The notes beneath the pieces are model-generated. The model saw only the letters and a program-made list of their open reading frames with translations. It was not told the DNA's origin and searched no databases. A stretch of DNA of 64,000 bases from assembly GCA_015057865.1 (NCBI GenBank), contig SVDH01000005.1, forward strand, positions 29,950-93,949. Direction: 5' to 3'. This DNA is from Lachnospiraceae bacterium (GTDB lineage: Bacteria > Bacillota > Clostridia > Lachnospirales > Lachnospiraceae). Shown here piece by piece: positions 5,714 through 41,540 of the stretch. The position numbers were made by a program, and so were the translations under genes. Each line of letters begins with the position of its first letter. The stretch's first letter is position 1.

Positions 5714-5716
5714 GCT

Positions 5717-6214
5717 TTACGCACTAGTGCCGGAAGGCTGATCATGCAGATGTAAAACTGCTTCTTCCAGATCGTCACCATGGTAGCTGACCTTTAGCGA
5801 AAACATGCCGGCATCCTCTGTCAGCAGTTTCAAAAAGAGCTTATCGCCTTCCCACAGGTTTAGCTTCATCAAATCTTTTTTCGGGACCCATGCCAGATTG
5901 CCTTCGTTGCAGGCATGCAGTGTGCCGGTAAAAGCATCTGCTGTATACAAAAACATATATTCCGTCGGCCATGCATCATTTAAAAATGTGATGATGCCGC
6001 GGAGTCTGAAACCGGTCAGTGTCAGGCCGGTTTCTTCTTTGACTTCCCGAAGCAGACACTCTTCCGGTGTCTCATCCGGTTCAAATTTCCCGCCGACACC
6101 GATCCATTTTCCTTCGTTGATGTCATTTTCTTTCTTTGTGCGGTGCAGCATCAGATAGCAGTCGTCTTTTTCAATGTAGCAAAGTGTAGTCAGGTAAAAA
6201 GGTTTGTCTGGCAT
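5717..6214 (-). CDS. NUDIX hydrolase (MutT-like)
   Basis: Nudix box GKWIGVGGKFEPDETPEECLLREVKEETGL. AAGGAGG RBS precedes the second ATG (6214), so that start is preferred over 6229. Confidence 0.85.
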   Translation of the reverse strand: MPDKPFYLTTLCYIEKDDCYLMLHRTKKENDINEGKWIGVGGKFEPDETPEECLLREVKEETGLTLTGFRLRGIITFLNDAWPTEYMFLYTADAFTGTLHACNEGNLAWVPKKDLMKLNLWEGDKLFLKLLTEDAGMFSLKVSYHGDDLEEAVLHLHDQPSGTSA

Positions 6215-6284
6215 GTCAGCCTCCTTCATTTGTGTGTATTACGATGTATCAATTGTGGCGTAAATAGTTGGAAAAAGCAAGCGT

Positions 6285-6315
6285 TTGATAAATTCTTGTT
6301 TGTAGATTCGACAAA
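6285..6315. repeat. 31-nt repeat, copy A (perfect reverse complement of 12841-12871)
   Basis: TTGATAAATTCTTGTTTGTAGATTCGACAAA, verified base by base as the exact reverse complement of 12841-12871. Similarity continues imperfectly for ~10 more nt. Confidence 0.9.
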
Positions 6316-6493
6316 TACAGAATTCATACTGTACATGTCAAAATAATAACTCTTGATTTTCTTGTTTTTTCTCCGCCGCCTATCCACTCGGTCTTTGCGG
6401 GATGACAGGTTTGCACCCGTCTCCGACCTCGTTGTTATGCTCGAAAAAACTGCGAAAATACTGCGAATGTTATTATTTGTGACAGGACAGTAT

Positions 6494-6804
6494 CAAATTC
6501 CGGTGTTTGTCATGATCTACAATCATCGGTATCAGAGAAGCTTTCGCCAACTTCGCTTTTCTTTTGCGATGAGCCGTCGATATTTCTGCAAGGTATCAAG
6601 TCCGAAAAGGGGCAGAATCTGCTATCCGCTGCAGATTCTGAAGCAATAAGGAGAACTGGTTTTCATCAGAAAATCCGGTTCGACTATTGCGGTACCCTTT
6701 GCAGGACGCAGATAGCTTGTATGAAATATCCGGCGATTTAGACTTGAAAACGAAGTTGGTGAAAGATTTCTGATACGATAGCTAGATCTACAAACACGAA
6801 CTTG
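6494..6804. repeat. long imperfect inverted repeat (arms ~110 nt, ~90-nt centre) upstream of fhs
   Basis: The left arm (6494 to ~6600) aligns to the reverse complement of the right arm (~6700 to 6804) at roughly 75-80% identity by eye. Example: ATCGGTATCAGAGAAGCTTTCGCCAACTTCGCTTTTC versus ATCGTATCAGAAATCTTTCACCAACTTCGTTTTC. The centre holds a perfect 10-bp hairpin, CAGAATCTGC (6613-6622) / GCAGATTCTG (6631-6640). The arm ends carry degenerate copies of the 31-nt repeat core (GTGTTTGT..GATCTA). Confidence 0.75.
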
Positions 6805-6927
6805 TCAAATTCCCGTTTTTGTCAGGCATTCGTGTATTCTCAAAAATGCAAATTCGTGCTAAACTAAAGTCCGGGCATTATGAACACCGAAACCTTGAAG
6901 ATAGATATTGTATGATGGAGGATCAAA

Positions 6928-8604
6928 ATGGGGTACAAGTCAGACATTGAGATTGCACAGGAAGCAACAATGGAACCGGTGAACAAGATTGCGGAGAGCC
7001 TTGCGATTCCGGAAGAGTATGTAGAGAATTACGGTCGTTACAAAGCAAAGATCGATTACAACTTTTTAAAAGAGCATAAGGATGACCCGGATGGAAAGCT
7101 GATCCTGGTTACAGCGATCACGCCGACACCGGCAGGAGAAGGCAAGACAACGACTAGTGTAGGCCTGGCAGACGGTTTGAAGAAGATCGGCAAGAAGGTT
7201 GTCGTTGCATTACGTGAGCCGTCCCTGGGACCGGTCTTTGGTATCAAAGGCGGCGCAGCAGGCGGCGGATATGCACAGGTCGTTCCGATGGAAGATATCA
7301 ACCTGCATTTTACCGGTGACTTTCATGCGATCGGTGCGGCAAATAACCTGTTGGCAGCGATGCTTGACAACCATATCCAGCAGGGCAATGAGCTGGGGAT
7401 CGATACGAAGCAGATCACCTGGAAGCGTGCGGTGGATATGAATGACCGTCAGCTTCGAAGCATCGTAGACGGTCTTGGCGGAAAACTTCAGGGCGTACCG
7501 CGCGAAGACGGTTTTGATATCACGGTTGCTTCAGAGGTGATGGCAGTTCTTTGTCTGGCTTCCGATATCAGCGATCTGAAGAAGAGACTTGGCAGTATCA
7601 TCGTTGCATATACCTATGACGGAAAACCGGTTACGGCGCATGATCTGAAAGCGGAAGGCGCGATGGCTGCATTGCTGAAAGATGCATTGAAGCCGAACCT
7701 GGTGCAGACGCTTGAGCATACACCGGCGTTGATCCATGGCGGTCCGTTCGCGAACATTGCGCATGGATGCAACTCTGTCACAGCGACCAGACTGGCATTA
7801 AAGCTTGGAGATTATATTGTTACAGAAGCAGGATTCGCTGCAGATCTTGGCGCAGAGAAGTTTTTGGATATCAAATGCCGTATGGCAGGGCTGAAGCCGA
7901 ATGCAGTCGTGATCGTTGCTACGGTACGCGCACTGAAATATCATGGCGGCGTTGCAAAGGCAGATCTGAACGAAGAGAATCTGGAAGCGCTTGAAAAAGG
8001 TATGCCGAACCTTCTGCAGCATGTTTCCAATATCAAAGATGTCTACGGGCTGCCATGTGTGGTTGCGATCAATGCATTCCCGACAGATACGAAAGCAGAG
8101 CTGGATCTGGTAGAAGCAAAATGCAAAGAACTTGGCGTAAACGTTGCATTGTCTGAAGTTTGGGCAAAGGGCGGCGAAGGCGGCATGGCGCTTGCTGAAG
8201 AAGTGGTTCGCCTCTGTGATGAGCCGAATGACTTCAGATTCTCCTATGATACAGAGCTCTCGATTGAAGAGAAGCTGGAAGCGATCTGCAAGCGTATCTA
8301 CCATGCGGATGGTGTTGCGCTTACCGCAAAAGCAGCGAAGCAGGCAAAGCAGCTGGAAGAGCTTGGGTTCGGAAAGATGCCGGTCTGCATGGCAAAGACC
8401 CAGTATTCGTTCTCGGATGATCCGAAGCTCCTTGGCGCGCCGAAGGGCTTCACGGTTACTGTAAGAAATCTGAAAGTAAGTGCCGGAGCAGGATTTATCG
8501 TAGCATTAACGGGTGATATCATGACCATGCCGGGGCTTCCGAAGGTACCAGCAGCAGAGCGCATCGATGTAGATGAAAACGGAAAGATTTCCGGATTATT
8601 CTAA
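6928..8604 (+). CDS. fhs: formate--tetrahydrofolate ligase
   Basis: 558 aa. Hallmark [12 protein letters not shown]-loop and full-length family-typical sequence. RBS GGAGGA. Confidence 0.95.
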
Positions 8605-8623
8605 TGTAGTTGAGAAAACAGGG

Positions 8624-8661
8624 AAATACAGCGATTTCTCATAAGAGAAATCGCTGTATTT
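8624..8661. terminator. bidirectional terminator hairpin between convergent fhs and the SDR gene
   Basis: Perfect 17-bp stem AAATACAGCGATTTCTC / GAGAAATCGCTGTATTT with a 4-nt loop. Confidence 0.7.
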
Positions 8662-8681
8662 ATAACTAAAAGCAGAGAAGA

Positions 8682-9443
8682 TCAATGTGCAGTCTGTCCG
8701 GCATCTGCGGCGATGATGGAGCCATTCAAAAAGGAAGCCATATCAGATCCCAGGAACAGGGCAACGTTGGCGATCTCTTCGGGCTCCGCGAAGCGATGCT
8801 GCGAGTTGTAGCTTTTTACGAGAGCAAGCATTTCGGGATCATCCATCCATCCGGCAGTGATCTCTGTGCGGGTAAAGCCGGGGGCAATGGCGTTGATCCT
8901 GATATTGCGGTCCGCGTATTCGATGGCAGCTGCCTTGGTCAGTCCGGTGACGGCGTGTTTTGCGCCAACATATGGTGTCATGCCGGGATCTGCGATCAGT
9001 CCGGCTACGGATGTGATATTGATGATCGCGCCGCCGGTTTCATTTTTCAATAATTCCGGCACTTCGTATTTCATACAGAGGAAAACGCCGCGGGCATCAA
9101 CATCAAATGTGTGATCAAAGTCAGCGGTGGTCTGTTCTGTCAGTTTTGCAGTTGGCGGAAGGGTGCCGGCGTTGTTGACAGCGATATCCAGTCTGCCGTA
9201 AATACAAATGGTCTGTTCGATCAGGTGGCGGATGTCATTTTCGTTTGCAACATCACACTGCACATAAGCCGCTTCACCGCCGGCATTTTTGATGGCCTGT
9301 TCTGTATCTGTACATGGACGCCGGCCGGCAAGCACGACTTTCGCACCCTGACCGGCAAACGCGATCGCAACTGCCTGTCCGATGCCGGAACGGGCACCTG
9401 TTACCAATACTACTTTTCCAGTAAAGTCCAGTAATTGTTTCAT
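8682..9443 (-). CDS. SDR-family oxidoreductase (FabG-like)
   Basis: TGARSGIGQA cofactor motif, NNAG, and catalytic YVGAKHAV (YxxxK). RBS AAAGGAG. Confidence 0.85.
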   Translation of the reverse strand: MKQLLDFTGKVVLVTGARSGIGQAVAIAFAGQGAKVVLAGRRPCTDTEQAIKNAGGEAAYVQCDVANENDIRHLIEQTICIYGRLDIAVNNAGTLPPTAKLTEQTTADFDHTFDVDARGVFLCMKYEVPELLKNETGGAIINITSVAGLIADPGMTPYVGAKHAVTGLTKAAAIEYADRNIRINAIAPGFTRTEITAGWMDDPEMLALVKSYNSQHRFAEPEEIANVALFLGSDMASFLNGSIIAADAGQTAH

Positions 9444-20035: not shown

Positions 20036-21301
20036 TCAAAATTCTATGGAAGAGGAATTCAGATAGGCTTCCTGTTCCGGCGTCAGTGTATCGATTTTCT
20101 TTCCGAGGAAGGAAAGCTTCCTGGTTGCGACTTCCAGATCTACTTCACGCGGTACGCGGATCAGGAAGTCGGTGCCTTCTTTGCCGGCAAGTTCTGCTTT
20201 ATGCTCTACCAGGTATTTTGCGCTCAGTGCCTGGATCGCAAAGCTCATGTCCATGATCTCGGCCGGGTGTCCGTCGCCTGCGGCCAGGTTTACAAGACGC
20301 CCTTCCGCGAGAACATAGATCCAGTTCTCATCAGAAATCTGATAGCCTGTAATATTCTGACGCTGGTCGATCGTATCGAGCGCGATCTCGCGAAGCCGCT
20401 TCATATTGATCTCGACATCGAAGTGTCCTGCGTTACACAGGATCGCGCCGTTTTTCATCAGGTGGAAATGCGCTTCATCGATGACACCTGCACAGCCTGT
20501 GACAGTGATAAAGAAATCACCGATCGGTGCGGCTTCTGCCATCGGCATCACATCAAATCCGTCCATGACAGCTTCGATCGCCTTAACCGGATCGATCTCT
20601 GTGACGATGACCTGTGCGCCCATCCCTTTTGCGCGCATCGCAACGCCTTTTCCGCACCAGCCATATCCTGCAACAACCACTTTTTTGCCTGCGACGATCA
20701 GGTTGGTCGTGCGGTTGATGCCGTCAAATACGGACTGGCCTGTCCCGTAGCGGTTGTCAAACAGATGCTTGCAGTCGGCATCGTTTACCAGCATCATCGG
20801 AAATGTCAGCTGCTTTTCTTTTGCCATGGCGATCAGGCGGATGATACCGGTCGTGGTCTCTTCACAGCCGCCGATCACGTATTGCAGCTTATCACGCATT
20901 TTTGTATGGAGCATATTTACCAGGTCTCCGCCGTCATCGATGATGATGTTACAGTTTCCTGCAAGGACCTGCGCGATGTTGGCGTCATATTCTTCCTCAG
21001 TGCATCCGTGCCATGCAAATACGTTCAATCCGCCTGCGGCAAGTGCAGCTGCGACATCATCCTGTGTGGAGAGCGGATTGCTTCCCGTGATATACATTTC
21101 TGCACCGCCTGCGGCCAGCACACGGCAAAGATAAGCGGTCTTTGCTTCCAGATGAATGGACAGGGCAATGCGGATGCTCGCAAATGGTTTTTCTTTCGAA
21201 AAATCTTCTTCCAGACTTCTCAGTAAGGGGCAGTTCTTTCTGACCCAGTCAATCTTATGTTCGCCCGAAGGCGCAAGTGCAATGTCTTTGATCTGATACA
21301 T
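20036..21301 (-). CDS. ahcY: adenosylhomocysteinase
   Basis: 421 aa. NAD-binding GYGWCGKG and full-length family-typical sequence (DDGGDL, GHFDVEI). RBS GGAGG. Confidence 0.95.
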   Translation of the reverse strand: MYQIKDIALAPSGEHKIDWVRKNCPLLRSLEEDFSKEKPFASIRIALSIHLEAKTAYLCRVLAAGGAEMYITGSNPLSTQDDVAAALAAGGLNVFAWHGCTEEEYDANIAQVLAGNCNIIIDDGGDLVNMLHTKMRDKLQYVIGGCEETTTGIIRLIAMAKEKQLTFPMMLVNDADCKHLFDNRYGTGQSVFDGINRTTNLIVAGKKVVVAGYGWCGKGVAMRAKGMGAQVIVTEIDPVKAIEAVMDGFDVMPMAEAAPIGDFFITVTGCAGVIDEAHFHLMKNGAILCNAGHFDVEINMKRLREIALDTIDQRQNITGYQISDENWIYVLAEGRLVNLAAGDGHPAEIMDMSFAIQALSAKYLVEHKAELAGKEGTDFLIRVPREVDLEVATRKLSFLGKKIDTLTPEQEAYLNSSSIEF

Positions 21302-21360
21302 TTATAACCTCCATTTTCCATTTGTTTTCAAAAGCTTTTTATAGTCTTTTAACGGAACAA

Positions 21361-22056
21361 TTAAATAATTTCAAAAAACTCTATTTCGTCAATCTGTTCC
21401 AGTTCCTTAAGGAACTGTTCGAGTGAGAAATTGCGCTCGAGACTGATATTGACAGTCAGCGCGGTGCCTTCTTCCGGAGAAGTGCCGGGCATCAGGTTAA
21501 ACTCCGTAAAAGTAATCCGGTGCTTTACGAAAAAACGCATCAGTGCACGCGTGTTTTGTCCGGCTTTGAGTTCGACATACAGGTCAAAATGCCGTTCGTC
21601 GTTCCGGAGATTTTTTTCTGCGACAGACATCAGACTTAAGGTAACGATGATCAGAATCACGGCAATGATCGTACCTTCGATAAATCCGATGCCGATGGCC
21701 AGTCCCGTGCAGGCGCATGCCCAAAGTCCTGCGGCGGTTGTTAACCCGCGTATATGTCTGCGCTGTGTGACAATGATCGTGCCCGCACCCAGAAAACCGA
21801 TGCCGCTGATGACCTGTGCACCAAGTCTCGCCACATCACCGTTCGCGCCCGGAAAATGAAGGAATACATACTGGCCTGTCATCATGACAAGGGCAGCGCC
21901 GATACAGACCAGGACATGTGTACGGATACCGGCACTCCGGTTATTCCGTTCTCTGTTTATGCCGATCGCAAAGCCGATGACCCAGGCAAGGATCAGACGT
22001 ATGAGGATGGAAAAGAAGCTCCAGTCAGACATCCATTGTGTAAATGATTGCCACAT
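21361..22056 (-). CDS. mgtC: MgtC/SapB family membrane protein
   Basis: MgtC core (GFAIGINRE...AGIRTHVLVCIGAA...GIGFLGAGTI) plus a C-terminal ACT-like domain. GGAGGTG SD before the ATG at 22056. The longer ORF-track start (22287) would overlap the divergent gene. Confidence 0.8.
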   Translation of the reverse strand: MWQSFTQWMSDWSFFSILIRLILAWVIGFAIGINRERNNRSAGIRTHVLVCIGAALVMMTGQYVFLHFPGANGDVARLGAQVISGIGFLGAGTIIVTQRRHIRGLTTAAGLWACACTGLAIGIGFIEGTIIAVILIIVTLSLMSVAEKNLRNDERHFDLYVELKAGQNTRALMRFFVKHRITFTEFNLMPGTSPEEGTALTVNISLERNFSLEQFLKELEQIDEIEFFEII

Positions 22057-22109
22057 GTAAGTCACCTCCGTTTCATTGAGTTCTGCTTCTCTATGATAAC
22101 AAACTTTCG

Positions 22110-22138
22110 TTGTAAAATACAGGGAAAATAGGTATACT
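22110..22138 (+). promoter_or_regulatory. candidate promoter for the DUF853 gene
   Basis: TTGTAA, 17-nt spacer, TATACT. Confidence 0.4.
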
Positions 22139-22203
22139 GAAAAAGATAGATAAAGTCGGTGAATCATCCGCTTAAACGCGGATTTATGAAAGGAGCGGTA
22201 CTT

Positions 22204-23802
22204 ATGTTCTATGAAGGCGCTATATGGATGGGTAATACGCAAGCCGGAGAAAAGGTCTCGATCCTGCCGGGAATGGCAAACCGTCATGGATTCATCGCAG
22301 GAGCGACCGGTACCGGAAAGACGGTAACACTAAAGGTTATGGCGGAAGCGTTCTCTGATATGGGAGTCCCGGTATTTCTGGCGGATGTCAAAGGCGATAT
22401 CGCGGGGATGATGAATGCAGGTGCGGATTCCGCGGATATGCAGGAGCGCATCGCACGGTTCGGACTCGGGGAAGCAGGCTTTTCCTATCAGGGTTACCCG
22501 GTTACGTTCTGGGATATTTACGGAAAGAACGGGATTCAGCTGCGTACGACGATCTCTGAGATGGGGCCGCTTTTGCTGGCAAGGATCCTTCAGTTGAATG
22601 ATCTGCAGACAGATATCCTGAACATCGTATACAAGATCGCGGATGACAACAATCTGCTTCTGATCGATACAAAAGATCTGAAGGCGATGTTGAATTTTGT
22701 AAATGAAAATGCATCCGAACTGGCCGCTGATTACGGAAAGATCAGCAGTGCTTCTCTTGGCGCGATCACAAGAGCACTCGTTGCACTGGAGCTGGAAGGC
22801 GGCGATGTATTTTTCGGAGAACCTGCACTGAATATCAATGACTGGCTTGCGGTCGGCGCAGGCGGAAAAGGGATGATGCACATCCTTGATTCGAGCAGTC
22901 TGATCAATAACGGCAGACTGTATTCGACGTTCCTGTTATGGCTGCTCTCGGAACTGTTTGAGACGCTGCCGGAAGTGGGCGATCTGGATAAGCCGAAGCT
23001 CGTATTCTTCTTTGATGAGGCACATCTGCTTTTCAGTGGCGCGTCAAAGAATCTTCTTGAAAAGATTGAGCAGGTGGTCAAACTGATCCGTTCAAAGGGT
23101 GTCGGTGTTTATTTCTGCACACAGAATCCGGGGGATATTCCCGATGGCATTCTGGCACAGCTTGGCAATAAGATCCAGCATGCCCTGCATGCGTATACAC
23201 CGACCGAGCAGAAGGCTGTCCGCGCTGCAGCGGACGCGTTCCGTGAGAATCCGGAGTTTGATACATATGAGACATTGGAAGCGCTGGGGATCGGCGAAGC
23301 GGTCGTTTCCTTCCTGGGTGCAGACGGTGTGCCGGGCATCGCGCAGCGTGTCAATATCCTGCCGCCGCAGAGCCTGATGGATGGGATCAGCGAAGCAGAG
23401 CGGGATACATGCATGAAATCATCTCTTCTTTACAGCAAATACGCACAAAGCATCGATCCGGATTCCGCATATGAGTTCCTGCAGAGAAAGGGCCTTGAAG
23501 CACAGGCTGAGGCTGAGACGCAGGCTGCTGAGGCAGAAGCACAAAAGGAAGCTGAGAAGGCAGAAAAAGAGGCATTAAAGGCAGAAGAAAAAGCCAAAAA
23601 AGAAGCTGAAAAGCAGGCGGAAAAAGAAGCGAAGGCCAAGAAAAAAGCAATCAAACAGGTGGGCGCTACGGTAGCCGGAACGGTTGGACGACAGGTCGGA
23701 AAACAAGTCGGCAAGAACTTTGGTAAATTCGGACAGACGCTCGGCGGAAATGTCGGCGCAAGTCTGGGAAGGGGAATATTAAGTACTTTATTTAAAAGCT
23801 AA
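22204..23802 (+). CDS. DUF853/HerA-like P-loop ATPase (YjgR-like)
   Basis: Walker A AGATGTGKT, Walker B-like VFFFDEAH, Lys/Glu/Ala-rich C-terminal coil. AAAGGAG SD before the ATG at 22204. Confidence 0.75.
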   Translation: MFYEGAIWMGNTQAGEKVSILPGMANRHGFIAGATGTGKTVTLKVMAEAFSDMGVPVFLADVKGDIAGMMNAGADSADMQERIARFGLGEAGFSYQGYPVTFWDIYGKNGIQLRTTISEMGPLLLARILQLNDLQTDILNIVYKIADDNNLLLIDTKDLKAMLNFVNENASELAADYGKISSASLGAITRALVALELEGGDVFFGEPALNINDWLAVGAGGKGMMHILDSSSLINNGRLYSTFLLWLLSELFETLPEVGDLDKPKLVFFFDEAHLLFSGASKNLLEKIEQVVKLIRSKGVGVYFCTQNPGDIPDGILAQLGNKIQHALHAYTPTEQKAVRAAADAFRENPEFDTYETLEALGIGEAVVSFLGADGVPGIAQRVNILPPQSLMDGISEAERDTCMKSSLLYSKYAQSIDPDSAYEFLQRKGLEAQAEAETQAAEAEAQKEAEKAEKEALKAEEKAKKEAEKQAEKEAKAKKKAIKQVGATVAGTVGRQVGKQVGKNFGKFGQTLGGNVGASLGRGILSTLFKS

Positions 23803-23805
23803 ACT

Positions 23806-24786
23806 ATGAGAAAGTCAAACAGAAAGAAACCATTTATTATGATCTTAACGGGAGCACTGATCATCAGTACGATCAGTCTTTCGGGATGCAGCATCGGAAA
23901 AGACAGAGAACAGGAAGAAGCATACAGAAGTGAAGGAATCGCGGCGTTTAAGGCAGGCGATTACCAGACTGCGATCGAGAAGTTTGATCTGGCTTTGGAG
24001 GAGTCAAAGGGAGACACTTCTGAACTGGAGACGGATATCATTTATTACAAGGCAAAAGCTTTGGTAGAAAATGGGGATCCGGAAAGCGCGATCGGCATTT
24101 ATGACGAGATATTGGAAGAGGATCCTTCAGACAGTAATGTCTGGTATCTGCGTGGCTGTGCGTCTTTGGCAGCAGGACTGATCGAACAGGCAGATACGGA
24201 TTATGCGCGTGCCGTTCAGAATGCACCGAACGATTATGAACTGACCTTTGCTGTTTATCAGGCTTTTAAGGATGCTGAACAGCCGGAAAAGGCAAATGCC
24301 GCGCTGGAACAGGCGCTTGCGTTTGAAGAGGAATCGGAAGAAGATCTATGCAGAAAAGGATACATTTGCTATCTGCTTGATGATACGCAGCAGGCAAATT
24401 CCTATCTGAATCAGGCTATTGAGGAAGGCTCGGATCAGGCGGTCTTATACCAGGGGATGATCTATGCGCAGACAGGACAGCGAGAAGAAGCCGTTACCAT
24501 GTTTGACCGGTATGCCGAAGAACACGCGGATGATCCTGACGAAATGCTGGATCTGGCAGCTGCGGCGGAAGGCGGCGGTCTCTATGAAGAAGCGATCCGA
24601 TATTATTCCGCATTGCGGGAAATGGAAGACGCAGACGGACAGGCGGTCTTAAAAGGCCTGATCGCATCCTATGAAGGAAGCGGAGATTATGAAACGGCTT
24701 ATACGCTGCTGGAAGAGTATCTGCAGTCCTGGCCGGACGATGAATCAGCACAAAAAGAACTGACTTTTGTGCAGACGAGGAGATAG
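23806..24786 (+). CDS. tetratricopeptide-repeat lipoprotein
   Basis: Signal peptide with lipobox LSGC, then repeated TPR-like A..Y..AL helices. Confidence 0.7.
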   Translation: MRKSNRKKPFIMILTGALIISTISLSGCSIGKDREQEEAYRSEGIAAFKAGDYQTAIEKFDLALEESKGDTSELETDIIYYKAKALVENGDPESAIGIYDEILEEDPSDSNVWYLRGCASLAAGLIEQADTDYARAVQNAPNDYELTFAVYQAFKDAEQPEKANAALEQALAFEEESEEDLCRKGYICYLLDDTQQANSYLNQAIEEGSDQAVLYQGMIYAQTGQREEAVTMFDRYAEEHADDPDEMLDLAAAAEGGGLYEEAIRYYSALREMEDADGQAVLKGLIASYEGSGDYETAYTLLEEYLQSWPDDESAQKELTFVQTRR

Positions 24787-24790
24787 TTGC

Positions 24791-27271
24791 ATGCATGAAG
24801 TGATCAAACGATATATTGATCTGGTGAATTCCTATGTAAAGCCGGCAGATTGGAAGGTTTTAAGCGATGAAAAGGGGGACTTTTCCATCGGCGGTCTGAT
24901 CTTGAGCAATTCCGGAGCAGTGACAGAAAACTACTGGCTTTCTGAGGTCTATGATCAGGAAATCGCGCAGGCACATAAAAACGGTCTGATCCATATTCAT
25001 GATCTGTCCATGCTGACGGGGCGCAGTGCCGGCTGGTCATTAAGACAGCTTATTTCAGAAGGACTGGGCGGCGTCGGCGGCAAATTAAGCTTCGGACCGG
25101 CAAGACATCTGGCAGTATTGTGCAACCAGATGGTCAGCTTTATGGAGATCATGCAGAATGAGTGGTCAGGCGCGCAGGCATTTTCATCGTTCGATACCTA
25201 TCTGGCGCCATACGTCCGTGCAGAGGAACTGAATTACCGTCAGGTCCGGCAGTGCATCGAATCGTTTGTATTCGGTGTCAATGTGCCGAGCAGATGGGGG
25301 ACACAGCCGCCGTTTTGTAATATTACCATGGACTGGCGTGTGCCGGCCGATCTTTATGATGTTCCTGCAGTTGTCGGCGGGGAAGAGATGGAATTCACCT
25401 ATGGTGACTGTCAGGCAGAGATGGATATGATCAACCAGGCGTTCTTAGAGACCATGATCGCGGGTGACAGTGAGGGGCAGGCTTTCCGATATCCGATTCC
25501 GACTTATGCCATAACAGAGGCTTTTGATTGGTCGGACACAGATAACAACAGGCTTTTATTTGAGATGACGGCAAAGTACGGAACGCCGTATTTTGCAAAT
25601 CATATTTTCAGTGACCGGCTTCCCGAAGATGCCAGACGGAACGAAAAGGGAGAAGAACCGGGAGAGACCCTTTTGAAAAAAAGCGGCGGTTATTTCGGTT
25701 ACGGGGAACACAGCGGTTCAATCGGTGCAGTGACGGTGAATCTGCCGAGGATCGCCTGGCTGTCCGGTGATGAAAATGATTTTTACCGGAGACTGGATGA
25801 GGCGATGGATCTGGCAGCGAGATCTTTAAAGATCAAACGCGGGGTTCTGACCCGTCTTTTGACAGAGGGACTTTATCCCTATACCAAGCGGTATATGGGG
25901 ACATATAACAGGCATTATTCGAGTATCGGTCCGGTCGGGATCAATGAAGCCTGTCTGAATGCGCACTGGCTCAAGCGCGATCTCTGGAATCCGACGGCAC
26001 AGAAGTTTGCAAAAGATATCCTGAAGCATATGAAGGACCGTCTGGTATATTACCAGCAGCATTATGGAGATCTGTTTGAACTCGAGGCGACGCCTGCAGA
26101 ATCGGCAGCCTTTGCCATGGCGCGCAAGGACAGGGGACTGTATCCGGAGATCGTCACGGCAGGAAAGCCCGGAGACACACCGTATTACACAAGCAGCAGT
26201 CAGCTGCCCTCTGATGCGACGACCAATGTGCAGGAGGCGCTCTCCATACAGGACGGTCTTCAGTCGATGTATACAGGCGGCACGGCATTTCACATCTATC
26301 TTTCTGAACAGATGAAGAGCTGGATGGATACGGCTTCTTTGGTGCGTTACGTGACAGAAAACTATGAACTGCCGTATTTTACCGTTTCACCGATCTATTC
26401 GATGTGTCCCGGACATGGGTATCTTAAGGGAACGGTCTACGAATGTCCGGTATGCGGACAGAAGACCAATGTATTTTGCAGGATCGCGGGATACTATCAT
26501 CCGATGGATGAGTGGAATGACGGAAAACTGCAGGAATTTAAAAACCGTAGAAACTTCCTGCTTCATCCGAGAAAAGCAGAGACGCCGGAAGAAGTCCGTG
26601 AAAATATTGCGCTGCAGTTAAAGGAAGACGCAGACGCGATGGAACAGCCGACGCCGGAAGAGATCGAAGCCGGAAGAGAGGCATTTAACTGGGCACAGCG
26701 GATCCGGGCGGATATGGAGGAGTGGCATAGACCCCGGGACGACGAACCGGCTGACGGATCAGGAACCGACGAGGAAATATATGGCCTTCAGATCGAAGGA
26801 GATGTGGTGGTCGGCCCGTTTTCCGAGGCAGAGCTGACCGGGAAAAAACCGGAACCGGTGCGCACAGAAGAAGAGGCAGACGGACAGCTGCGGTTTGCGG
26901 ATATGGAGTTTGAATCCGGCACGCCCAAAGCAGAAGAACCGGAGACCGTATCAGAAGGTGATACGGTTCCGGAAAACCAGATGACACTTGATTTTACAAG
27001 CGGCGGATGGAAGAGCAATGCGGATGCGCCGAATAAAAAGAACCCGGGTGAGCTGCCAAACGGATGGTATCTGTTTGCGGCACACAATGATCCGAACAGC
27101 ATGTATGCAAGAGAACTTTTAGGCGGCAAAGCATATCGTGAATTCAATGCTTATAAAGAGCCAAAGCTTGTGGCGGCGATCGGCATCAGACAGGCGCCGG
27201 CATACGTTTCTTTAAATGACGGAGAAGTACAGATCTATACAGGTATAAAAGAGATCAGGGAGTTGTGCTGA
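24791..27271 (+). CDS. anaerobic ribonucleotide reductase (NrdD)-like glycyl-radical-family protein with a long C-terminal extension
   Basis: NrdD-typical blocks: GLIHIHDL, NEWSGAQAFSSFDTYLAPYV, GSIGAVTVNLPRIA, YYTSSSQLP, YTGGTAFH, Zn-ribbon CPGH...CPVCG and Gly-radical-like FCRIAGYY. AGGAGA SD before the ATG at 24791. See the findings for the atypical features. Confidence 0.8.
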   Translation: MHEVIKRYIDLVNSYVKPADWKVLSDEKGDFSIGGLILSNSGAVTENYWLSEVYDQEIAQAHKNGLIHIHDLSMLTGRSAGWSLRQLISEGLGGVGGKLSFGPARHLAVLCNQMVSFMEIMQNEWSGAQAFSSFDTYLAPYVRAEELNYRQVRQCIESFVFGVNVPSRWGTQPPFCNITMDWRVPADLYDVPAVVGGEEMEFTYGDCQAEMDMINQAFLETMIAGDSEGQAFRYPIPTYAITEAFDWSDTDNNRLLFEMTAKYGTPYFANHIFSDRLPEDARRNEKGEEPGETLLKKSGGYFGYGEHSGSIGAVTVNLPRIAWLSGDENDFYRRLDEAMDLAARSLKIKRGVLTRLLTEGLYPYTKRYMGTYNRHYSSIGPVGINEACLNAHWLKRDLWNPTAQKFAKDILKHMKDRLVYYQQHYGDLFELEATPAESAAFAMARKDRGLYPEIVTAGKPGDTPYYTSSSQLPSDATTNVQEALSIQDGLQSMYTGGTAFHIYLSEQMKSWMDTASLVRYVTENYELPYFTVSPIYSMCPGHGYLKGTVYECPVCGQKTNVFCRIAGYYHPMDEWNDGKLQEFKNRRNFLLHPRKAETPEEVRENIALQLKEDADAMEQPTPEEIEAGREAFNWAQRIRADMEEWHRPRDDEPADGSGTDEEIYGLQIEGDVVVGPFSEAELTGKKPEPVRTEEEADGQLRFADMEFESGTPKAEEPETVSEGDTVPENQMTLDFTSGGWKSNADAPNKKNPGELPNGWYLFAAHNDPNSMYARELLGGKAYREFNAYKEPKLVAAIGIRQAPAYVSLNDGEVQIYTGIKEIRELC

Positions 27272-27291: not shown

Positions 27292-27780
27292 ATGGCAAAA
27301 CATGCACATATACAGATGACAGATCAGGAATTTGAAGATGCGCTCAAAATGGTGATGAAGCGCTCGACAAAGGAGCCCGAGCGTATGAATGCGAGCTTAA
27401 AGCTGCAGCTTCTTGACAGCAGTGCAGACGGAAAAGAGGGATTTGGGGAAGCGATTTTTGGTTATACCGTAAATCCTGCACATCTGAATCCATATGGCGG
27501 GATCCATGGCGGAATCGTGGCAGCACTCCTTGATACCTGTATGGGTACGGCGATCGCGGCCCGTACCGGACATTTTGTGATCACAACAGATCTTTCGGTA
27601 AGCTTTTTACGCGCATTGACGGATTCCCATTTCCGTATCTATATCGCATTTACCCACCTGGGACGGCGGATGGCCAGCGTGACCGGAAAGATCGTCAATG
27701 CAGACAATGACGAGATCTGCGCAACCGGAATGGGCACATTCATGCTGCTCGATACCGGTGATGCGGGAGTACAGGGATGA
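27292..27780 (+). CDS. PaaI-family (hotdog fold) thioesterase
   Basis: NPYGGIHGGIVAALLDTCMGTA motif, ~160 aa, GAGAGGA SD. Confidence 0.75.
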   Translation: MAKHAHIQMTDQEFEDALKMVMKRSTKEPERMNASLKLQLLDSSADGKEGFGEAIFGYTVNPAHLNPYGGIHGGIVAALLDTCMGTAIAARTGHFVITTDLSVSFLRALTDSHFRIYIAFTHLGRRMASVTGKIVNADNDEICATGMGTFMLLDTGDAGVQG

Positions 27781-28310
27781 TCATCCATAGAAGATTAAAA
27801 CAAGTTCCAAAAGGACGGTTCAGACGGTTTGCAGCATTGCTTGTTATCCTGAGCATGATGCTTTTTCTGCTCGTCGGATGTGGAAGCAAAAGTGAGCAGC
27901 CCGCGCCCCAGCAGACAGAGACTGTGACAGAAAGTGTGGCATCAGATCAGGAGACCGATGAGCATGTCTCTGCTCCGCAGATAGATGAGGATGGGAGTTA
28001 TACGTCTAAGGAAGATGTGGCATTGTATCTGCACACCTATGAAAAGCTGCCGTCTAATTTCATCACAAAAAAGGAAGCCAAAAGCCTTGGATGGGAAGGC
28101 GGTTCTCTGGAACCGTATGCGCCCGGAAAATGTATTGGCGGAGACCGGTTTGGGAACTACGAAGGACAGCTGCCCGACGGCTCTTACCATGAATGCGACA
28201 TCGGTACACTGGGAAAATCCAGCCGCGGGGCAAAACGCATCGTCTATTCCGATGATGGAAGGATCTATTACACAGATGATCATTATGAGACATTTGAACA
28301 GCTCTATTGA
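27777..28310 (+). CDS. secreted barnase-type ribonuclease (lipoprotein signal)
   Basis: The C-terminal 110 aa align by eye with barnase: VALYLHTYEKLPSNFITKKEAKSLGW...GKCIGGDRFGNYEGQLP...YHECDI...RIVYSDDGRIYYTDDHYETFEQ. N-terminal signal peptide with LLVGC lipobox. Confidence 0.85.
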   Translation: MIIHRRLKQVPKGRFRRFAALLVILSMMLFLLVGCGSKSEQPAPQQTETVTESVASDQETDEHVSAPQIDEDGSYTSKEDVALYLHTYEKLPSNFITKKEAKSLGWEGGSLEPYAPGKCIGGDRFGNYEGQLPDGSYHECDIGTLGKSSRGAKRIVYSDDGRIYYTDDHYETFEQLY

Positions 28311-28339
28311 ATGTTGAAACACCAAATACGGTAGGAAGA

Positions 28340-29455
28340 ATGATAGAATACAGAATCGATCTAAAAGGAATCCAGAGCAGAGAGGCGCTGCATGATCTGT
28401 TGGAGCAGGTGCTTCCGCTGCCGGACTATTACGGGCGAAATCTTGACGCACTCTATGATGTGCTGACTGACTGGAGTGGGAAAACCGGGATTTTGCTTTG
28501 TGGTGTACGCGCCGCAATGGAAAACGAAGGAATGGAAAAGATTATCCGGGGGCTGGTGTCCGTTTTTATGGATGCAGCCAAAGAGAATCCGGGTTTTTCT
28601 GTTACAATAGAGGATGAGCATACAGACAAAGAGGAGGGACTTATGGAGAACAAGACAGATTACATTGCAAGTGCAGGACAGACGTATATTCCGTTTCAGA
28701 AGAATATCTATACCGATCTGATGCCGTTTGATCCGCCGGCAAAGCCGGATCCGCTGCTGCCACCGCTTGAGCTGACGGACGAAGCGATCGCAAAAGGATA
28801 TGTGCTGCCGTCACAAAAGCAGCATTTCCTTCCGGGCGTGACATCAGAGATGATGGACTGGTTCTGGGCAAATATGGAGAAGGGATACTATCTTTGGGCA
28901 CCGGGTTCTCACAAGCGTTTTAACTGGGTGAAATCTCCGGTAGAATACGGCATGGAGGATTCCATTCATATGATCGCAGAAACGACAGCCAAAGGGCTGC
29001 CGGTATTCGGAGGAGAGGGCGTTCAGATCCATCGCCTGCATCTGGATGAGTTTTATCCCTGTAAAACAGCATTAAAGCATGTTATTTGCGAGGGCGTTTT
29101 TAATGACGCCGGCGAATTTGTCGATTCCACGATCCATGAGTGGGAAGATGTGCCGGGCGGTCTGGTTCATATCACGGCAACGGTTTCGAATACAAAAGCT
29201 TCGATGCCGCCGGGATTTGTACTGAAGATGATCCAGGAAGATCCGAATGTGAAGATCGTTCCGAACTGGGCGACCGACCATGAAGACTATGAGGCAAGTC
29301 AGTGGCCGATCTTCCTGCCGAAGTTATATGAGCTTTGGAAAAACCATCCGGATCCGGCACAGAATGTACAGTGTAATCTGGAGGTTGCATTGGGCGAAGA
29401 TGGGAAGTATCATTATATAGCAGAAAACGGACCGGTTCAGATACCGGAAGCGTAG
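28340..29455 (+). CDS. barstar (RNase inhibitor) fused in frame to a ~270-aa PhlG/phloretin-hydrolase-like domain
   Basis: N-terminus MIEYRIDLKGIQSREALHDLLEQVLPLPDYYGRNLDALYDVLTDW is barstar-like. No stop occurs before an internal SD+ATG (AAGAGGAGGGACTT-ATG at 28643). The C-terminal part has YYLWAPGSHKRFNW and HEDYE (H-x3-E). I recall this as DAPG/phloretin hydrolase-like, from memory only. Confidence 0.7.
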   Translation: MIEYRIDLKGIQSREALHDLLEQVLPLPDYYGRNLDALYDVLTDWSGKTGILLCGVRAAMENEGMEKIIRGLVSVFMDAAKENPGFSVTIEDEHTDKEEGLMENKTDYIASAGQTYIPFQKNIYTDLMPFDPPAKPDPLLPPLELTDEAIAKGYVLPSQKQHFLPGVTSEMMDWFWANMEKGYYLWAPGSHKRFNWVKSPVEYGMEDSIHMIAETTAKGLPVFGGEGVQIHRLHLDEFYPCKTALKHVICEGVFNDAGEFVDSTIHEWEDVPGGLVHITATVSNTKASMPPGFVLKMIQEDPNVKIVPNWATDHEDYEASQWPIFLPKLYELWKNHPDPAQNVQCNLEVALGEDGKYHYIAENGPVQIPEA

Positions 29456-38810: not shown

Positions 38811-41540
38811 ATGTTTTTTGACAAAGAAGACAAATACGCGCAGCGGACGATGTTCATCACAGAGTCGCATAAGCGTTATACCTATCAGACTGTTTACAAA
38901 CTGCAGGATCAGATGACCGATCAGCTGATGCCGCGCAGTCTTGTTTTGATCCTTTGTAAAAACTGTGTTCCGGCGATTGCGATGTATCTGGGTCTGCTTC
39001 GCAAAAACATGGTACCGATCCTGATGGATGAGCATGTGACGGCAGGTTTTTTAAAAGAGTTTATGGCAGCTTACCGGGTCAACGCGGTATTGTTGCCGGA
39101 GAACCGGAGAACGGAGATCAGAGGCGGTGAAACGCTCTGGAACGGAGAGGGGTACAGTCTGATCGGGATCAGGAAAGCCGGCCCTGTGATGTCACCGGAT
39201 CTGGCACTGCTTGTACCGGTTTCGGACCGTACGGGAAGCCTGATGATGGTCCGCTACTCCAAAGAGAATCTTCAGGCGGGAACAGAAAGTGCGGCTGCGG
39301 TGCAAAAGATCGTGGGCGGAGACCGGCTGATCACAAATCTGCCGTTTCATTTTTCATTTCCGCTGACCATACTCCACAGTTATATTCTGCGCGGTGCGCA
39401 GATCCTGCTTACGGAACGCAGCGTGACGGAGCGCGGCTTCTGGCAGTTTTTTCATGATGAAGAAGCCTCTGCGCTATGCGCGTTCCCGCACACCTGTCAG
39501 ATGCTGTGGCGGATGCACATAGACAAAATGCATATCCCGGGACTCCGGACGCTGGCGATATCCGGCGGATCGCTTCCTGTGACGCTGCAGAAAGATCTGG
39601 CAGACTGGGCATCGATCCGCGGCGTACGTCTGTTGATCTTTTATGGGAAGACAGAAAGCGCGGGATTCATGGCACACCTTGGCAGCAGGGACAGTTTAAA
39701 AGTCCTGAATTCGATCGGCAGACCGAATGCGTTCGGCAGAATGGAGCGGATCGACAAAAACGGCCGCCTGATCACAAACGGCAGCCAGGTGGGTGAGATG
39801 GTCTATTATGGAGAGAATGTTTCTCTTGGATACGCCGGAAACACAGATGATCTTCGCAGAGGAGATGAACACAAGGGTGTTTTGAAGACAGGCGATCTTG
39901 CGGTCTGTTCAGAGCAGGGATACTATTCGATCCGCGGAAGATCGGAACGCTTCCTGAAAGTGACAGGGATCCGGATCGATCTAGATGAGCTGGAGCGGCT
40001 GTTGAAAGACCGCTGGAACCGGAACTTTGCCTGCGTGGGAACAGATGATCTCTTAGAGATCTTTGAAGAAGCGCGCCAGGTGGAAGCACCGCCGGATGAT
40101 GAGAGCGATGCAGGGGATGGCCTGGTCTTTTTAGAGGTGGAAGATAATAAAAAGGGAAGACGGGGGCGTCGTGCAAAAAAGGGAACGGGTCCGATCAGAG
40201 AGATTCCGTCGACACAGCTGGAAGAAAAACCGGAAGAGATAAAAGAAGGCGGACAGCAGGCGGATTGGAAGACGACGAATCCGACCATATGGGCCTGGAC
40301 AGCAAAGCGTCTCGGAATCCCGAAGCATATGATCCGATATACGATTTGTAAAGAAATTCCAAAAGAGGTTCAGGATACAGATTATACAAGCAAGGAGAGG
40401 CACATGATTTACAGAACTTTTCAGGACATGAAACTGTCAGCTTTAGGTATGGGAGCGATGCGGCTTCCGGTCATTGACGGAGATGACAGCAGGATCGATA
40501 AAGAACGGACACAGGAAATGGTTGATTATGCCATGGCAAACGGTATCAATTATTACGATACCGCATGGGGATATCATGACGGTAATTCCGAGCTCGTGAT
40601 GGGGGAGGCTTTAAAGAAATATCCGCGTGAAAACTTTTATCTGGCAACCAAATTTCCGGGATATGATCTTTCCAATATGCCAAAGGTAAAGGAAATCTTT
40701 GCAAAGCAGCTGGAAAAATGTCAGGTAGACTATTTTGATTTTTATCTGGTTCACAATGTCTGCGAACTGAATATCAACGAATATCTGGATGATGCACAGT
40801 TTGGCATCGTTTCCTACTTAAGAGAACAGAAAGAAGCAGGAAAGATCCGCCATCTCGGTTTTTCCGCGCATGGCAGCGTAGAAGTAATGAAACGGTTCCT
40901 GGATGCATACGGTGAGTACATGGAATTCTGTCAGATCCAGCTGAACTATCTTGACTATTCCTTCCAGGATGCAAAAGGCAAGATCGAGCTGCTCAAAGAG
41001 TGGAATCTGCCCATCTGGGTCATGGAACCGCTGCGCGGCGGGCGTCTGGCAAAATTGAATGATGAAGAAACAAAACTTCTGGCTTCCCTGCGTCCGGACG
41101 AAAAGGTGCCAGCCTGGGCATTCCGTTTCCTGCAGAGCATTCCGGAAGTGACGATGATCCTGTCCGGTATGTCTGATTATGATCAGATGAAGGAAAATAT
41201 CGAGACCTTCGCGACGGATGCACCGCTTTCGGAAAATGAATGGAATGAAGTACTCGCAATGGCAGACAGGATGCTGCAGACAAAGACACTGCCGTGTACG
41301 GCGTGCCATTATTGTACCAGCCATTGCCCGCAGGAACTGGACATCCCGTGGCTGATCGAATTATACAATGAGCACGGTTTTACAGGTGGTGGATTCCTGG
41401 CGCCGATGGCATTGGCGTCCGTGCCAAGGGAAAAGAGGCCGTCTGCATGCATCGGATGCAGAAGCTGTGAGGCTGTTTGTCCGCAGCAGATCAAGATTTC
41501 CGAAGCAATGGCAGATTTTACCGAGAAATTAAAGCAGTAA
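38811..41540 (+). CDS. fusion: adenylate-forming (AMP-binding) enzyme-like domain plus aldo/keto reductase with C-terminal 4Fe-4S ferredoxin motifs
   Basis: AMP-binding motifs FYGKTES, LKTGDLA, IRGRSERFLKVTGIRIDLDELE, with a degenerate P-loop (VSDRTGSLMM). An internal AAGGAGAGG SD precedes the ATG at 40404, which starts a complete AKR (MIYRTFQDMKLSALGMGAMRLP...) ending with CTACHYCTSHCP and CIGCRSCEAVCP. Confidence 0.75.
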   Translation: MFFDKEDKYAQRTMFITESHKRYTYQTVYKLQDQMTDQLMPRSLVLILCKNCVPAIAMYLGLLRKNMVPILMDEHVTAGFLKEFMAAYRVNAVLLPENRRTEIRGGETLWNGEGYSLIGIRKAGPVMSPDLALLVPVSDRTGSLMMVRYSKENLQAGTESAAAVQKIVGGDRLITNLPFHFSFPLTILHSYILRGAQILLTERSVTERGFWQFFHDEEASALCAFPHTCQMLWRMHIDKMHIPGLRTLAISGGSLPVTLQKDLADWASIRGVRLLIFYGKTESAGFMAHLGSRDSLKVLNSIGRPNAFGRMERIDKNGRLITNGSQVGEMVYYGENVSLGYAGNTDDLRRGDEHKGVLKTGDLAVCSEQGYYSIRGRSERFLKVTGIRIDLDELERLLKDRWNRNFACVGTDDLLEIFEEARQVEAPPDDESDAGDGLVFLEVEDNKKGRRGRRAKKGTGPIREIPSTQLEEKPEEIKEGGQQADWKTTNPTIWAWTAKRLGIPKHMIRYTICKEIPKEVQDTDYTSKERHMIYRTFQDMKLSALGMGAMRLPVIDGDDSRIDKERTQEMVDYAMANGINYYDTAWGYHDGNSELVMGEALKKYPRENFYLATKFPGYDLSNMPKVKEIFAKQLEKCQVDYFDFYLVHNVCELNINEYLDDAQFGIVSYLREQKEAGKIRHLGFSAHGSVEVMKRFLDAYGEYMEFCQIQLNYLDYSFQDAKGKIELLKEWNLPIWVMEPLRGGRLAKLNDEETKLLASLRPDEKVPAWAFRFLQSIPEVTMILSGMSDYDQMKENIETFATDAPLSENEWNEVLAMADRMLQTKTLPCTACHYCTSHCPQELDIPWLIELYNEHGFTGGGFLAPMALASVPREKRPSACIGCRSCEAVCPQQIKISEAMADFTEKLKQ

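Follow-up and report, generated by a model that had tools for sequence, protein, structure and literature searches.

The closest described relatives of the protein in this study are the class III (glycyl-radical) ribonucleotide reductases (RNRs) of the NrdD type, in which the NxN flap and HxHD are described motifs (PMC11226230) and the finger loop carries MGCR or MCCR (PMC9669993). The literature regards the catalytic cysteines and motif residues of these enzymes as essential, and treats the cysteines of strand beta-A and of the finger loop as universal. The protein itself is encoded at positions 24791–27271, on the plus strand, of a 64-kb stretch of a Lachnospiraceae genome (assembly GCA_015057865.1, contig SVDH01000005.1), referred to here as the window, which has about 49% G+C and holds most of its genes on the plus strand. 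Its nearest canonical counterparts are Lachnospiraceae NrdDs of ~790–820 aa, 58–68% identical over the barrel, in which an ATP cone precedes the barrel and radical domain, and a short linker leads to a glutaredoxin-like domain with a CPNC motif. With canonical clostridial NrdD (the NF006126/PRK08270 type) the window protein shares the fold, HxHD, the phosphate loop, loop 2, the C-x2-H...C-x2-C zinc pattern, RxxGY and the thioredoxin-fold tail, but the ATP cone is gone, as are the Asn of the flap, Tyr-Cys on beta-A, Met-Cys-Cys in the finger loop and the CPNC motif, and neither nrdG nor trxB lies next to the gene. Among solved relatives the best match by sequence is the NrdD of Thermotoga maritima (NrdDh; PDB 4COI, 4U3E; E 5e-34), followed by those of Prevotella copri and phage T4. 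The T. maritima protein has the same C-x2-H first zinc pair, but unlike the window protein it retains SCCR and Cys125 and is enzymatically active.

Inactive RNR homologues are known from class I, where the betaherpesvirus R1 homologues M45/UL45 and yeast Rnr4 have kept the fold for protein interaction or non-catalytic partnering. These are large or small subunits from eukaryotes and viruses, whereas the window protein belongs to class III, in which we know of no dead example, the earlier cases being confined to the class I proteins of herpesviruses and yeast. Full-text literature searches returned no description of a Cys-less or pseudo-NrdD, and a dead class III homologue under selection would be the first described. 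Judged from its sequence, the gene probably encodes such a protein, namely a catalytically dead, nucleotide-binding derivative of a clostridial class III RNR that originated in place and has a regulatory or scaffold role. That the protein does not function as an RNR is very likely, whilst any specific regulatory or scaffold role is proposed tentatively here, and the database label of a working reductase is most likely wrong for it. The original prediction, made from the letters of the window alone, had favored a pseudo-enzyme, a regulator or a protein with different chemistry over a working RNR, which every sequence test run supports.

The coding sequence runs from an ATG at 24791 to a TGA at 27269–27271 (826 aa), with a Shine-Dalgarno-like GAGGAG on the same strand (24777–24782) 8 nt before the start, and the initial MHEV is common to all orthologues. 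Pfam NRDD (PF13597) is the single domain identified, at residues 31–589 (E 1.8e-151, 506 bits), and the protein scores 824 bits against the NCBIfam equivalog NF006126 ("ribonucleoside triphosphate reductase"; cut-off 548) and 422 bits against TIGR02487 (cut-off 326). These matches, together with the presence of all the motifs that had been quoted, bear out the earlier assignment of the first ~600 aa as class III RNR-like. The NF006126 match spans only profile positions 100–681 of 684, and with the profile covered only from position 100, the N-terminal ATP cone of ~100 residues is missing. In the full-length AlphaFold2 (AF2) model (mean predicted local distance difference test score, pLDDT, 69.7) the NrdD barrel is confident, and the top 36 Foldseek matches in the PDB are all class III RNRs, with E-values down to 2.6e-24. 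NCBI names the cluster to which the protein belongs "ribonucleoside triphosphate reductase" (MBE6009538.1, MBQ9022322.1, MBQ7447762.1).

The protein was aligned to the NrdDs of T. maritima and P. copri and, with every column scored, to 63 canonical relatives along with representatives of four orthologous clusters; against T. maritima and the canonical relatives alike, both catalytic Cys columns are without Cys. In the beta-A strand (TGRSAGWSL, 25016–25042, plus strand), Arg78-Ser79 replace the Tyr-Cys of canonical GYCAGWSL (Tyr124-Cys125 in T. maritima). Ser79 occupies the column of T4 C79 and T. maritima C125, which is Cys in 62/63 canonical relatives, and the original prediction was therefore right that the GRSAGWSL block lacks the conserved beta-A Cys. 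The finger loop (25616–25681, plus strand) reads RLPEDARRNEKGEEPGETLLKK where canonical relatives have MEPSDVRSMCCRLRLDLRELRKK, with canonical RSMCCRLRLD aligned to RRNEKGEEPG. Its two Cys columns, filled by Cys in 62/63 and 63/63 canonical sequences, hold Glu and Lys, and the earlier claim of a loop with no Cys at all is confirmed against both the 63 canonical relatives and T. maritima. No Cys or selenocysteine (Sec) of the protein aligns at either the finger-loop or the bottom-face position. Recoding or a hidden motif was considered and rejected, as translation of the three critical regions in all frames gave no canonical motif and no in-frame stop, the latter meaning that the protein contains no Sec.

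The losses go beyond those originally predicted, in that the ATP cone and the substrate-flap Asn are also gone. The degenerate flap, LSDEKG (24860–24877, plus strand), stands in place of canonical KENSTV, the equivalent of the NxN flap (ENANM) of P. copri NrdD; canonical ENSTV has become SDEKG, and Asp26 has replaced the first flap Asn, which hydrogen-bonds the gamma-phosphate of the substrate (PMC11226230). At the redoxin CPNC columns, both Cys in 63/63 canonical sequences, the window protein has D767 and S770. Every residue that performs redox or radical chemistry in the canonical enzyme has been exchanged, on beta-A (Tyr-Cys), in the finger loop (Met-Cys-Cys), in the flap (Asn) and in the redoxin motif (CxxC), and the protein would be expected to form no thiyl radical, disulfide or thiosulfuranyl species and to carry out no ribonucleotide reduction.

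Much of the nucleotide-binding apparatus is nevertheless kept. The HxHD triphosphate-binding motif is present as HIHD (24992–25003), and the phosphate-binding loop at a helix N-terminus as ATPAES (26087–26104), within EATPAES, both on the plus strand and identified by alignment (PMC4493059 for HxHD; PMC11226230 and PMC4493059 for the loop). Loop 2, NVPSRWGTQPPFC (25280–25318, plus strand), retains R168, Q172 and F175, equivalent to R221, Q224 and Y227 of T. maritima, which contact the substrate base (PMC4493059). The specificity-site beta-hairpin and helix alpha-A (25058–25153, plus strand) are mostly conserved, with fixed S101F, N116S, L118M and G119E, each at a column that does not vary among canonical relatives; the T. 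maritima counterpart of N116 is Gln161, by which the effector base is read (PMC4493059). Since HxHD, the phosphate loop and the contacts of loop 2 are kept, along with most of the specificity hairpin, nucleotides may still be bound.

The zinc ribbon is also kept (C539-x2-H542 ... C552-x2-C555, 26405–26455, plus strand), in the same pattern as in canonical relatives. Its first pair, CPGH, had been taken as an anomaly in place of CxxC, but C-x2-H is the norm of the family, with H542 nearly invariant and T. maritima having the same, so this part of the original prediction does not hold. The glycyl-radical-type loop that follows, FCRIAGYYH (26474–26500, plus strand), places Gly567 at 26489–26491, and both its RxxGY motif (RIAGYY) and the zinc ribbon are nearly invariant among orthologues. 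Three cysteines have been gained at positions that are Ser/Thr, Gly and Ser in canonical relatives, namely C176, C388 and C563, and all orthologues keep them. Cys176 directly follows the base-stacking Phe175, Cys388 (25952–25954, plus strand, in NEACLNA) replaces a Gly found in 57/63 canonical sequences and recurs in several other Cys-less NrdD-like lineages, and Cys563 lies four residues before the radical Gly. Altogether the variant has fixed different residues at 98 positions that are at least 90% conserved in canonical sequences, and these cluster in the flap, beta-A, helix alpha-A, the finger loop and its flanks, and around the radical Gly.

Five orthologous lineages, 83–96% identical and from ruminant-gut Lachnospiraceae metagenome-assembled genomes (MAGs), have all of the Cys and motif changes in common, including the absence of Cys from the finger loop. 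The orthologues come from three MAGs labelled Eubacterium sp. or Lachnospiraceae (L001–L003) and four metagenome contigs (L082–L085), and a protein identical to that of the window is encoded on 13 metagenome contigs. Whether orthologues would conserve the Cys-less state and the C-terminal domain had been posed as a check on the original prediction; the state is common to all five lineages, and the domain is kept as well. By the Nei-Gojobori method dN/dS for the whole gene is 0.04–0.08 (for example 0.046 at a dS of 0.43 between the window and L001), and for the core 0.025–0.06. In a tree with canonical sequences the variants form a single clade whose stem is the longest branch, with variant-canonical identities of 61–69% compared with 80–100% among canonical sequences. 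This indicates that the variant would have passed through a burst of change followed by stasis.

The distribution of this constraint along the protein is uneven. Pooled pN/pS is lowest in the Gly loop (residues 558–580, 0.011) and in beta-A (0.012), where no variation is seen across orthologues, and stands at 0.024 for the whole zinc ribbon/glycyl-radical domain (residues 535–590), 0.089 for the remaining core, 0.16 for the flap, 0.17 for the thioredoxin-like tail and 0.26 for the acidic linker. At the finger-loop tip (residues 283–293) it reaches 0.57, with no invariant columns; the tip is acidic and variable and differs by indels between orthologues. The glycyl-radical loop is thus the most constrained part of the protein, and since pS in the radical domain is about 0.7 and not depressed, the constraint acts on the protein. 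Strong purifying selection is seen everywhere except at the tip of the former thiyl-radical loop, which is nearly neutral.

The region after the Gly motif consists of an acidic linker of 165 aa with a net charge of −26 (26561–27055, plus strand) and a C-terminal thioredoxin-fold domain (27056–27268, plus strand), in which DPNS at 27089–27100 replaces the canonical CPNC. The linker is about 110–150 aa longer than in canonical NrdD-Grx fusions; disorder is predicted for most of it and a helix at two places, and several short motifs in it are conserved. No Pfam redoxin or Glutaredoxin match was found in the window protein at E ≤ 1. Its C-terminal domain is 38% identical to the canonical NrdD tail (E 4.5e-9), and the homologous canonical tails are PF00462-positive. 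Modelled alone with AF2, the last 83 residues reach a pLDDT of 85.5 with a beta-alpha-beta-alpha-beta-beta-alpha topology, and Foldseek places fold-switched KaiB and the SasA N-terminal domain first, followed by thioredoxins (TM scores of 0.6–0.7); the KaiB and SasA matches have TM scores of 0.60–0.67 at marginal E-values (~2e-3). As in the window tail, the thioredoxin fold of KaiB and SasA is without a redox CxxC, but these proteins have no sequence homology to the tail, which descends from the CPNC glutaredoxin-like domain of NrdD. A homologue search with residues 590–826 returned one identical fragment only, and is uninformative as it missed the known orthologues of 83–92% identity. The original description of a glutaredoxin-like tail with DPNS for CxxC therefore stands, whereas the domain is not itself new, being inherited from canonical NrdD-Grx fusions, with the novelty lying in the Cys loss and the longer acidic linker.

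The genomic context points to descent in place. A gene for a tetratricopeptide-repeat (TPR) lipoprotein (23806–24786, plus strand), with a signal peptide and an LSGC lipobox and matching TPR models only, ends 4 nt before the NrdD-like start, and in all orthologues the NrdD-like gene is directly preceded by this same TPR gene. Homologues of this lipoprotein are also found directly upstream of two more distant Cys-less genes described below, P0250 (41% identity; L091, L098), which is followed by pyrC-pyrF-pyrK-pyrD-pyrE, and P0245 (L092). A metagenome scan with the Cys-less alignment and generic patterns, returned ordinary canonical loci in 78 of 80 cases, and yielded L098, which carries the P0250 orthologue, and L120. 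The latter (4637–9329) encodes a fully canonical NrdD of 797 aa, with the ATP cone, ENSTV, GYCAGWSL, RSMCCRL, SRITGYY and CPNC, in a TPR-nrdD-pyrF context that is otherwise found with Cys-less copies only, has no adjacent nrdG, and probably represents the ancestral state of the locus. The TPR-nrdD synteny in three Cys-less lineages and in canonical L120 suggests that the Cys-less genes would descend in place from a resident nrdD. The simplest reading of the TPR linkage is inherited synteny, a functional link with the NrdD-like protein being unproven.

This arrangement differs from that of 76 canonical reference-genome loci, in which nrdG lies directly upstream in 60/76 and a trxB-like flavoprotein gene directly downstream in 34/76, compared with a TPR gene in 0/76. 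No nrdG, second nrdD or other RNR gene is present in the 64-kb window, and no nrdG lies beside any orthologue. The absence of an adjacent NrdG activase gene had been noted before and is confirmed at the locus, but as an argument against function it is weaker than it seems, because canonical L120 is also without one. Palindromes resembling NrdR boxes occur 30–120 nt upstream of nrdG in 13/55 canonical loci (L005, L032–L062), some in tandem ~32 nt apart; none was found upstream of the variant operon (window 21300–24800, and orthologues), which is a weak negative. The canonical loci themselves (L004–L079, L099–L177; for example L026 8874–12109 and L086 463–3488) have the fused CPNC domain and usually the operon nrdG-nrdD-trxB-like. 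This suggests a self-contained relay in these MCCR-type class III RNRs, with the flavoprotein and the fused redoxin linking NAD(P)H to the active site.

The window protein is not the only NrdD-like protein without these cysteines. In a search of the core against 1.84 billion representatives at 50% identity, with motif columns taken from a hidden Markov model alignment of the best 150, ~9/150 of the nearest representatives (~6%) lack the beta-A Cys (P0245/P0391, P0250, P0254, P0257, P0260, P0295, P0346, P0358). This is in line with the 92.6% conservation of this Cys given for class III sequences (PMC9669993). The finger-loop Cys is absent in six of these, present in P0346 and unaligned in P0358, and in a tenth representative, P0356, the finger loop is deleted, only that loop being lost. 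As a group, the other Cys-less proteins (including P0346/P0392 and P0358/P0413) resemble the window protein in having a degenerate flap and no beta-A or finger-loop Cys. Most keep the ATP cone and end right after the last barrel strand, with no zinc ribbon or radical loop, so that NF006126 coverage extends to about position 626 of 684; all pass its cut-off. In these proteins the cone is kept, the radical domain is gone and the phosphate loop and loop 2 are more degenerate, whereas the window lineage shows the reverse. That active NrdDs might routinely lack the cysteines is a possibility on which the original prediction would have failed; the Cys-less representatives have lost further catalytic parts as well, mostly the entire glycyl-radical domain, and hence do not resemble active enzymes that manage without these residues.

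Some features connect these lineages more closely. In P0250, P0391 and P0295 a long acidic linker leads into a thioredoxin-like tail that is poor in Cys, with tail motifs of GWYLFALRNDPNC in P0250 and LLFTAKNSPNC in P0391 compared with GWYLFAAHNDPNS in the window protein. P0250 and P0391 share with the window lineage not only the linker and tail (GWYLFA..NDPN) but also the upstream TPR gene. Derived residues common to the window protein and the other Cys-less proteins include NEACLNA, YFAN, APYV, QPPF and PARHL, and all ten Cys-less sequences cluster together in 53/60 neighbor-joining bootstraps, without resolution of the branching inside the cluster. The TPR synteny of three lineages also favors this grouping. 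The window protein is thus part of a wider set of Cys-less NrdD-like proteins in gut Clostridia that is apparently undescribed.

Three of the short Cys-less genes (P0257, P0392, P0413) are preceded, at a distance of 2–17 nt, by a gene for a fusion of a MarR-type winged helix with an NrdG-like radical S-adenosylmethionine (SAM) domain. The fusion protein is 378–381 aa long, has an intact CxxxCxxC and scores above the TIGR02495 (NrdG2) cut-off. The second gene of this conserved module, found at L093 3943–6994, L094/L095 6853–9836 and L096/L097 6851–9821, encodes a protein of 606–632 aa that is NrdD-like with an ATP cone, and lacks both cysteines and the glycyl-radical domain. The pair may be a nucleotide-sensing transcription-factor module, representing a regulatory use of NrdD and NrdG, and the Cys-less set with its MarR::NrdG-like partners may be an unexplored class of regulators linked to deoxynucleoside triphosphates (dNTPs).

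In the same search, many NrdD representatives among P0243–P0390 were found to be 1000–1880 aa long and to match the query in 2–5 stretches. The breaks often fall around query residues 283–294, the finger loop, which is consistent with candidate inteins at the site of the catalytic Cys.

Taken together, these findings suggest a possible history for the window protein. The parent would have been a class III NrdD with an ATP cone, an alpha/beta barrel, a zinc ribbon, a glycyl-radical loop and a fused glutaredoxin-like domain. This resident, TPR-linked nrdD would have degenerated in place once another RNR supplied dNTPs, for which the highly conserved nrdG-nrdD-trxB type, widespread in rumen MAGs, is a candidate. 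Most plausibly, its product would bind nucleotides and serve the NrdD/NrdG system as a regulator or scaffold; its frozen glycyl-radical domain may act as a partner of, or a decoy for, the activase or a canonical subunit, and the acidic linker and Cys-less thioredoxin-fold domain may serve as protein-interaction modules. In P. copri NrdD the radical domain and the flap become ordered or disordered as nucleotides bind (PMC11226230), and by analogy a nucleotide-gated switch might present the radical domain, linker and Cys-less thioredoxin fold to partners such as NrdG, canonical NrdD or others.

Several observations weigh against this interpretation. The three fixed changes in helix alpha-A and the Asp in the flap make nucleotide binding uncertain, and AF2 confidence is low exactly in the barrel interior (pLDDT < 50 in the flap, 21–46, beta-A, 72–81, the finger tip, 285–288, residues 302–308 and the Gly loop, 563–572). 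Long-branch attraction may account for the grouping of the Cys-less sequences. Comparison of NCBI accession blocks for a canonical NrdD from the same MAG found none near the variant accessions. The relatives without a glycyl-radical domain show that any shared function is independent of it, so that the window lineage may do something other than they do. Constraint on the Gly loop, furthermore, exceeds what a purely structural role explains, and radical chemistry could persist.

This last point leads to the alternative that survives best, which is nonetheless unlikely, that the protein still bears a glycyl radical and has rewired or different chemistry. NrdG or some other activase would then place a radical on Gly567, to be used through C176, C563 or C388, or held non-catalytically as an oxygen switch or radical reservoir. 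Selection on the Gly loop and zinc ribbon, the most constrained parts of the protein (pN/pS 0.011–0.024 at a pS of about 0.7), is in keeping with this, as are the intact RxxGY and the Tyr after the Gly, but the finger tip is acidic, variable and nearly neutral, and the closest Cys-less relatives have dropped the whole glycyl-radical domain. The gained cysteines are all kept by orthologues, and C176 directly follows the base-stacking residue (PMC4493059); C388, on the other hand, also occurs in relatives without a radical domain, and is thus unlinked to radical chemistry. HxHD, the phosphate loop and the loop 2 contacts would be available to such a protein, yet no activase gene is present in the window. 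The glycyl-radical superfamily is characterized by the pairing of a Gly loop with a finger-loop Cys, of which only the Gly loop is present here, and to our knowledge every characterized glycyl-radical enzyme uses that Cys.

With selection strongest on the glycyl-radical loop, the question is raised of what purpose such a domain serves without a thiyl partner. A partial parallel is offered by GrcA/YfiD, a 14-kDa stand-alone radical domain that replaces the cleaved C-terminus of pyruvate formate-lyase. It resembles the window protein in having a conserved glycyl-radical loop and no catalytic Cys of its own, but it stands alone, whereas the radical domain of the window protein is attached to a complete Cys-less barrel. 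If a radical were borne, the protein would be the first of its fold without a finger-loop thiyl Cys, having either a relocated Cys or a role as an oxygen- or nucleotide-responsive regulator of RNR, and would belong to an unrecognized, NrdD-derived family of nucleotide sensors in gut Clostridia, for whose MarR::NrdG branch a transcription-factor complex would be suggested. So far-reaching an outcome is improbable.

Much less probable still is a working RNR that manages without the canonical cysteines, for example by drawing on formate or an outside thiol and abstracting hydrogen with another residue. The protein does pass the NF006126 cut-off (824 compared with 548 bits) and bears the NCBI reductase name, and the crystal structure of T. 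maritima NrdD is likewise without a Cys at the finger-loop tip, yet that enzyme is active (PMC4493059). T. maritima, however, keeps an SCCR motif and Cys125, whereas the window protein is Cys-free in both the finger loop and beta-A; the flap Asn, the beta-A Tyr and the redoxin CxxC are lost too, the loop tip is unconstrained, and the usual operon partners nrdG and trxB are absent at the locus. Metabolic reconstructions of rumen and gut Clostridia may accordingly count a non-functional RNR by way of NF006126, which gives the reductase name to this protein and its Cys-less relatives alike; inspection of the two Cys columns would remove the error.

The least credible explanation is that the gene has only lately decayed into a pseudogene, or that it reflects an error of sequencing or assembly or a chimera, and this is effectively excluded by the low dN/dS and the state shared across lineages. 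One relative, P0005 (L081), does join the N-terminal half of the variant to the C-terminal half of a canonical protein, and contig ends interrupt many rumen nrdD genes. The 826-codon open reading frame (ORF), however, is intact in six sequences separated by dS of 0.4 to >1 at dN/dS of 0.04–0.08, the identical protein is found on 13 independent contigs, and the P0005 crossover falls on a 21-nt run, the window gene being collinear with all other orthologues.

P0005 (L081 1336–3441) was also considered as an evolutionary intermediate and rejected, being a join of P0001-type and P0121-type sequence on a single 3.9-kb contig. The switch lies inside the 21-nt run, which is common to both parents, and a trxB-like gene follows downstream. 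It is probably a metagenome misassembly caused by a short-k-mer misjoin, a natural recombinant being less likely. Among the related canonical nrdD genes in rumen and gut MAGs (P0121–P0239), many are "partial", cut at contig ends, and near-identical copies (80–100%) are binned in Erysipelotrichaceae, Oscillospiraceae, Coriobacteriaceae and Eubacterium MAGs. This suggests that assemblies break at a highly conserved gene, or else that the operon moves horizontally.

The wider neighborhood of the NrdD-like gene is conserved among orthologues, in the order MgtC (minus strand), HerA-like ATPase, TPR, NrdD-like, hotdog thioesterase, barnase-like RNase, barstar fusion and diaminopimelate (DAP) dehydrogenase. 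The ATPase (window 22159–23802) is of the HerA_C/DUF87 type with a low-complexity C-terminal tail rich in K, A and E, and is the first gene of an apparent HerA-TPR-NrdD-like operon seen in the window lineage only. A link to anti-phage defence was considered on account of its weak PADLOC matches to the mad8 and HerA defence models and set aside, the NrdD-like protein, thioesterase, RNase and barstar fusion having no PADLOC match. Downstream, at window 27777–29455, lies a gene for a ribonuclease of the barnase family (PF00545 in orthologues), followed by the gene for a 382-aa protein with an N-terminal barstar domain and an uncharacterized C-terminal domain of ~270 aa, and this pair is kept downstream of the NrdD-like gene in all orthologues.

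Further away, the only radical-SAM gene of the window lies ~23 kb upstream (462–1883) and encodes a 473-aa radical-SAM/SPASM protein, which is of the SPASM maturase type and not a glycyl-radical activase. Two unusual multidomain ORFs are present on the other side of the NrdD-like gene, at 38811–41540 and 47973–50237. In the first, of 909 aa, an AMP-binding enzyme is fused to an aldo/keto reductase and a 4Fe-4S dicluster domain, and the second, of 754 aa, has a C-type lectin domain as its sole Pfam match.

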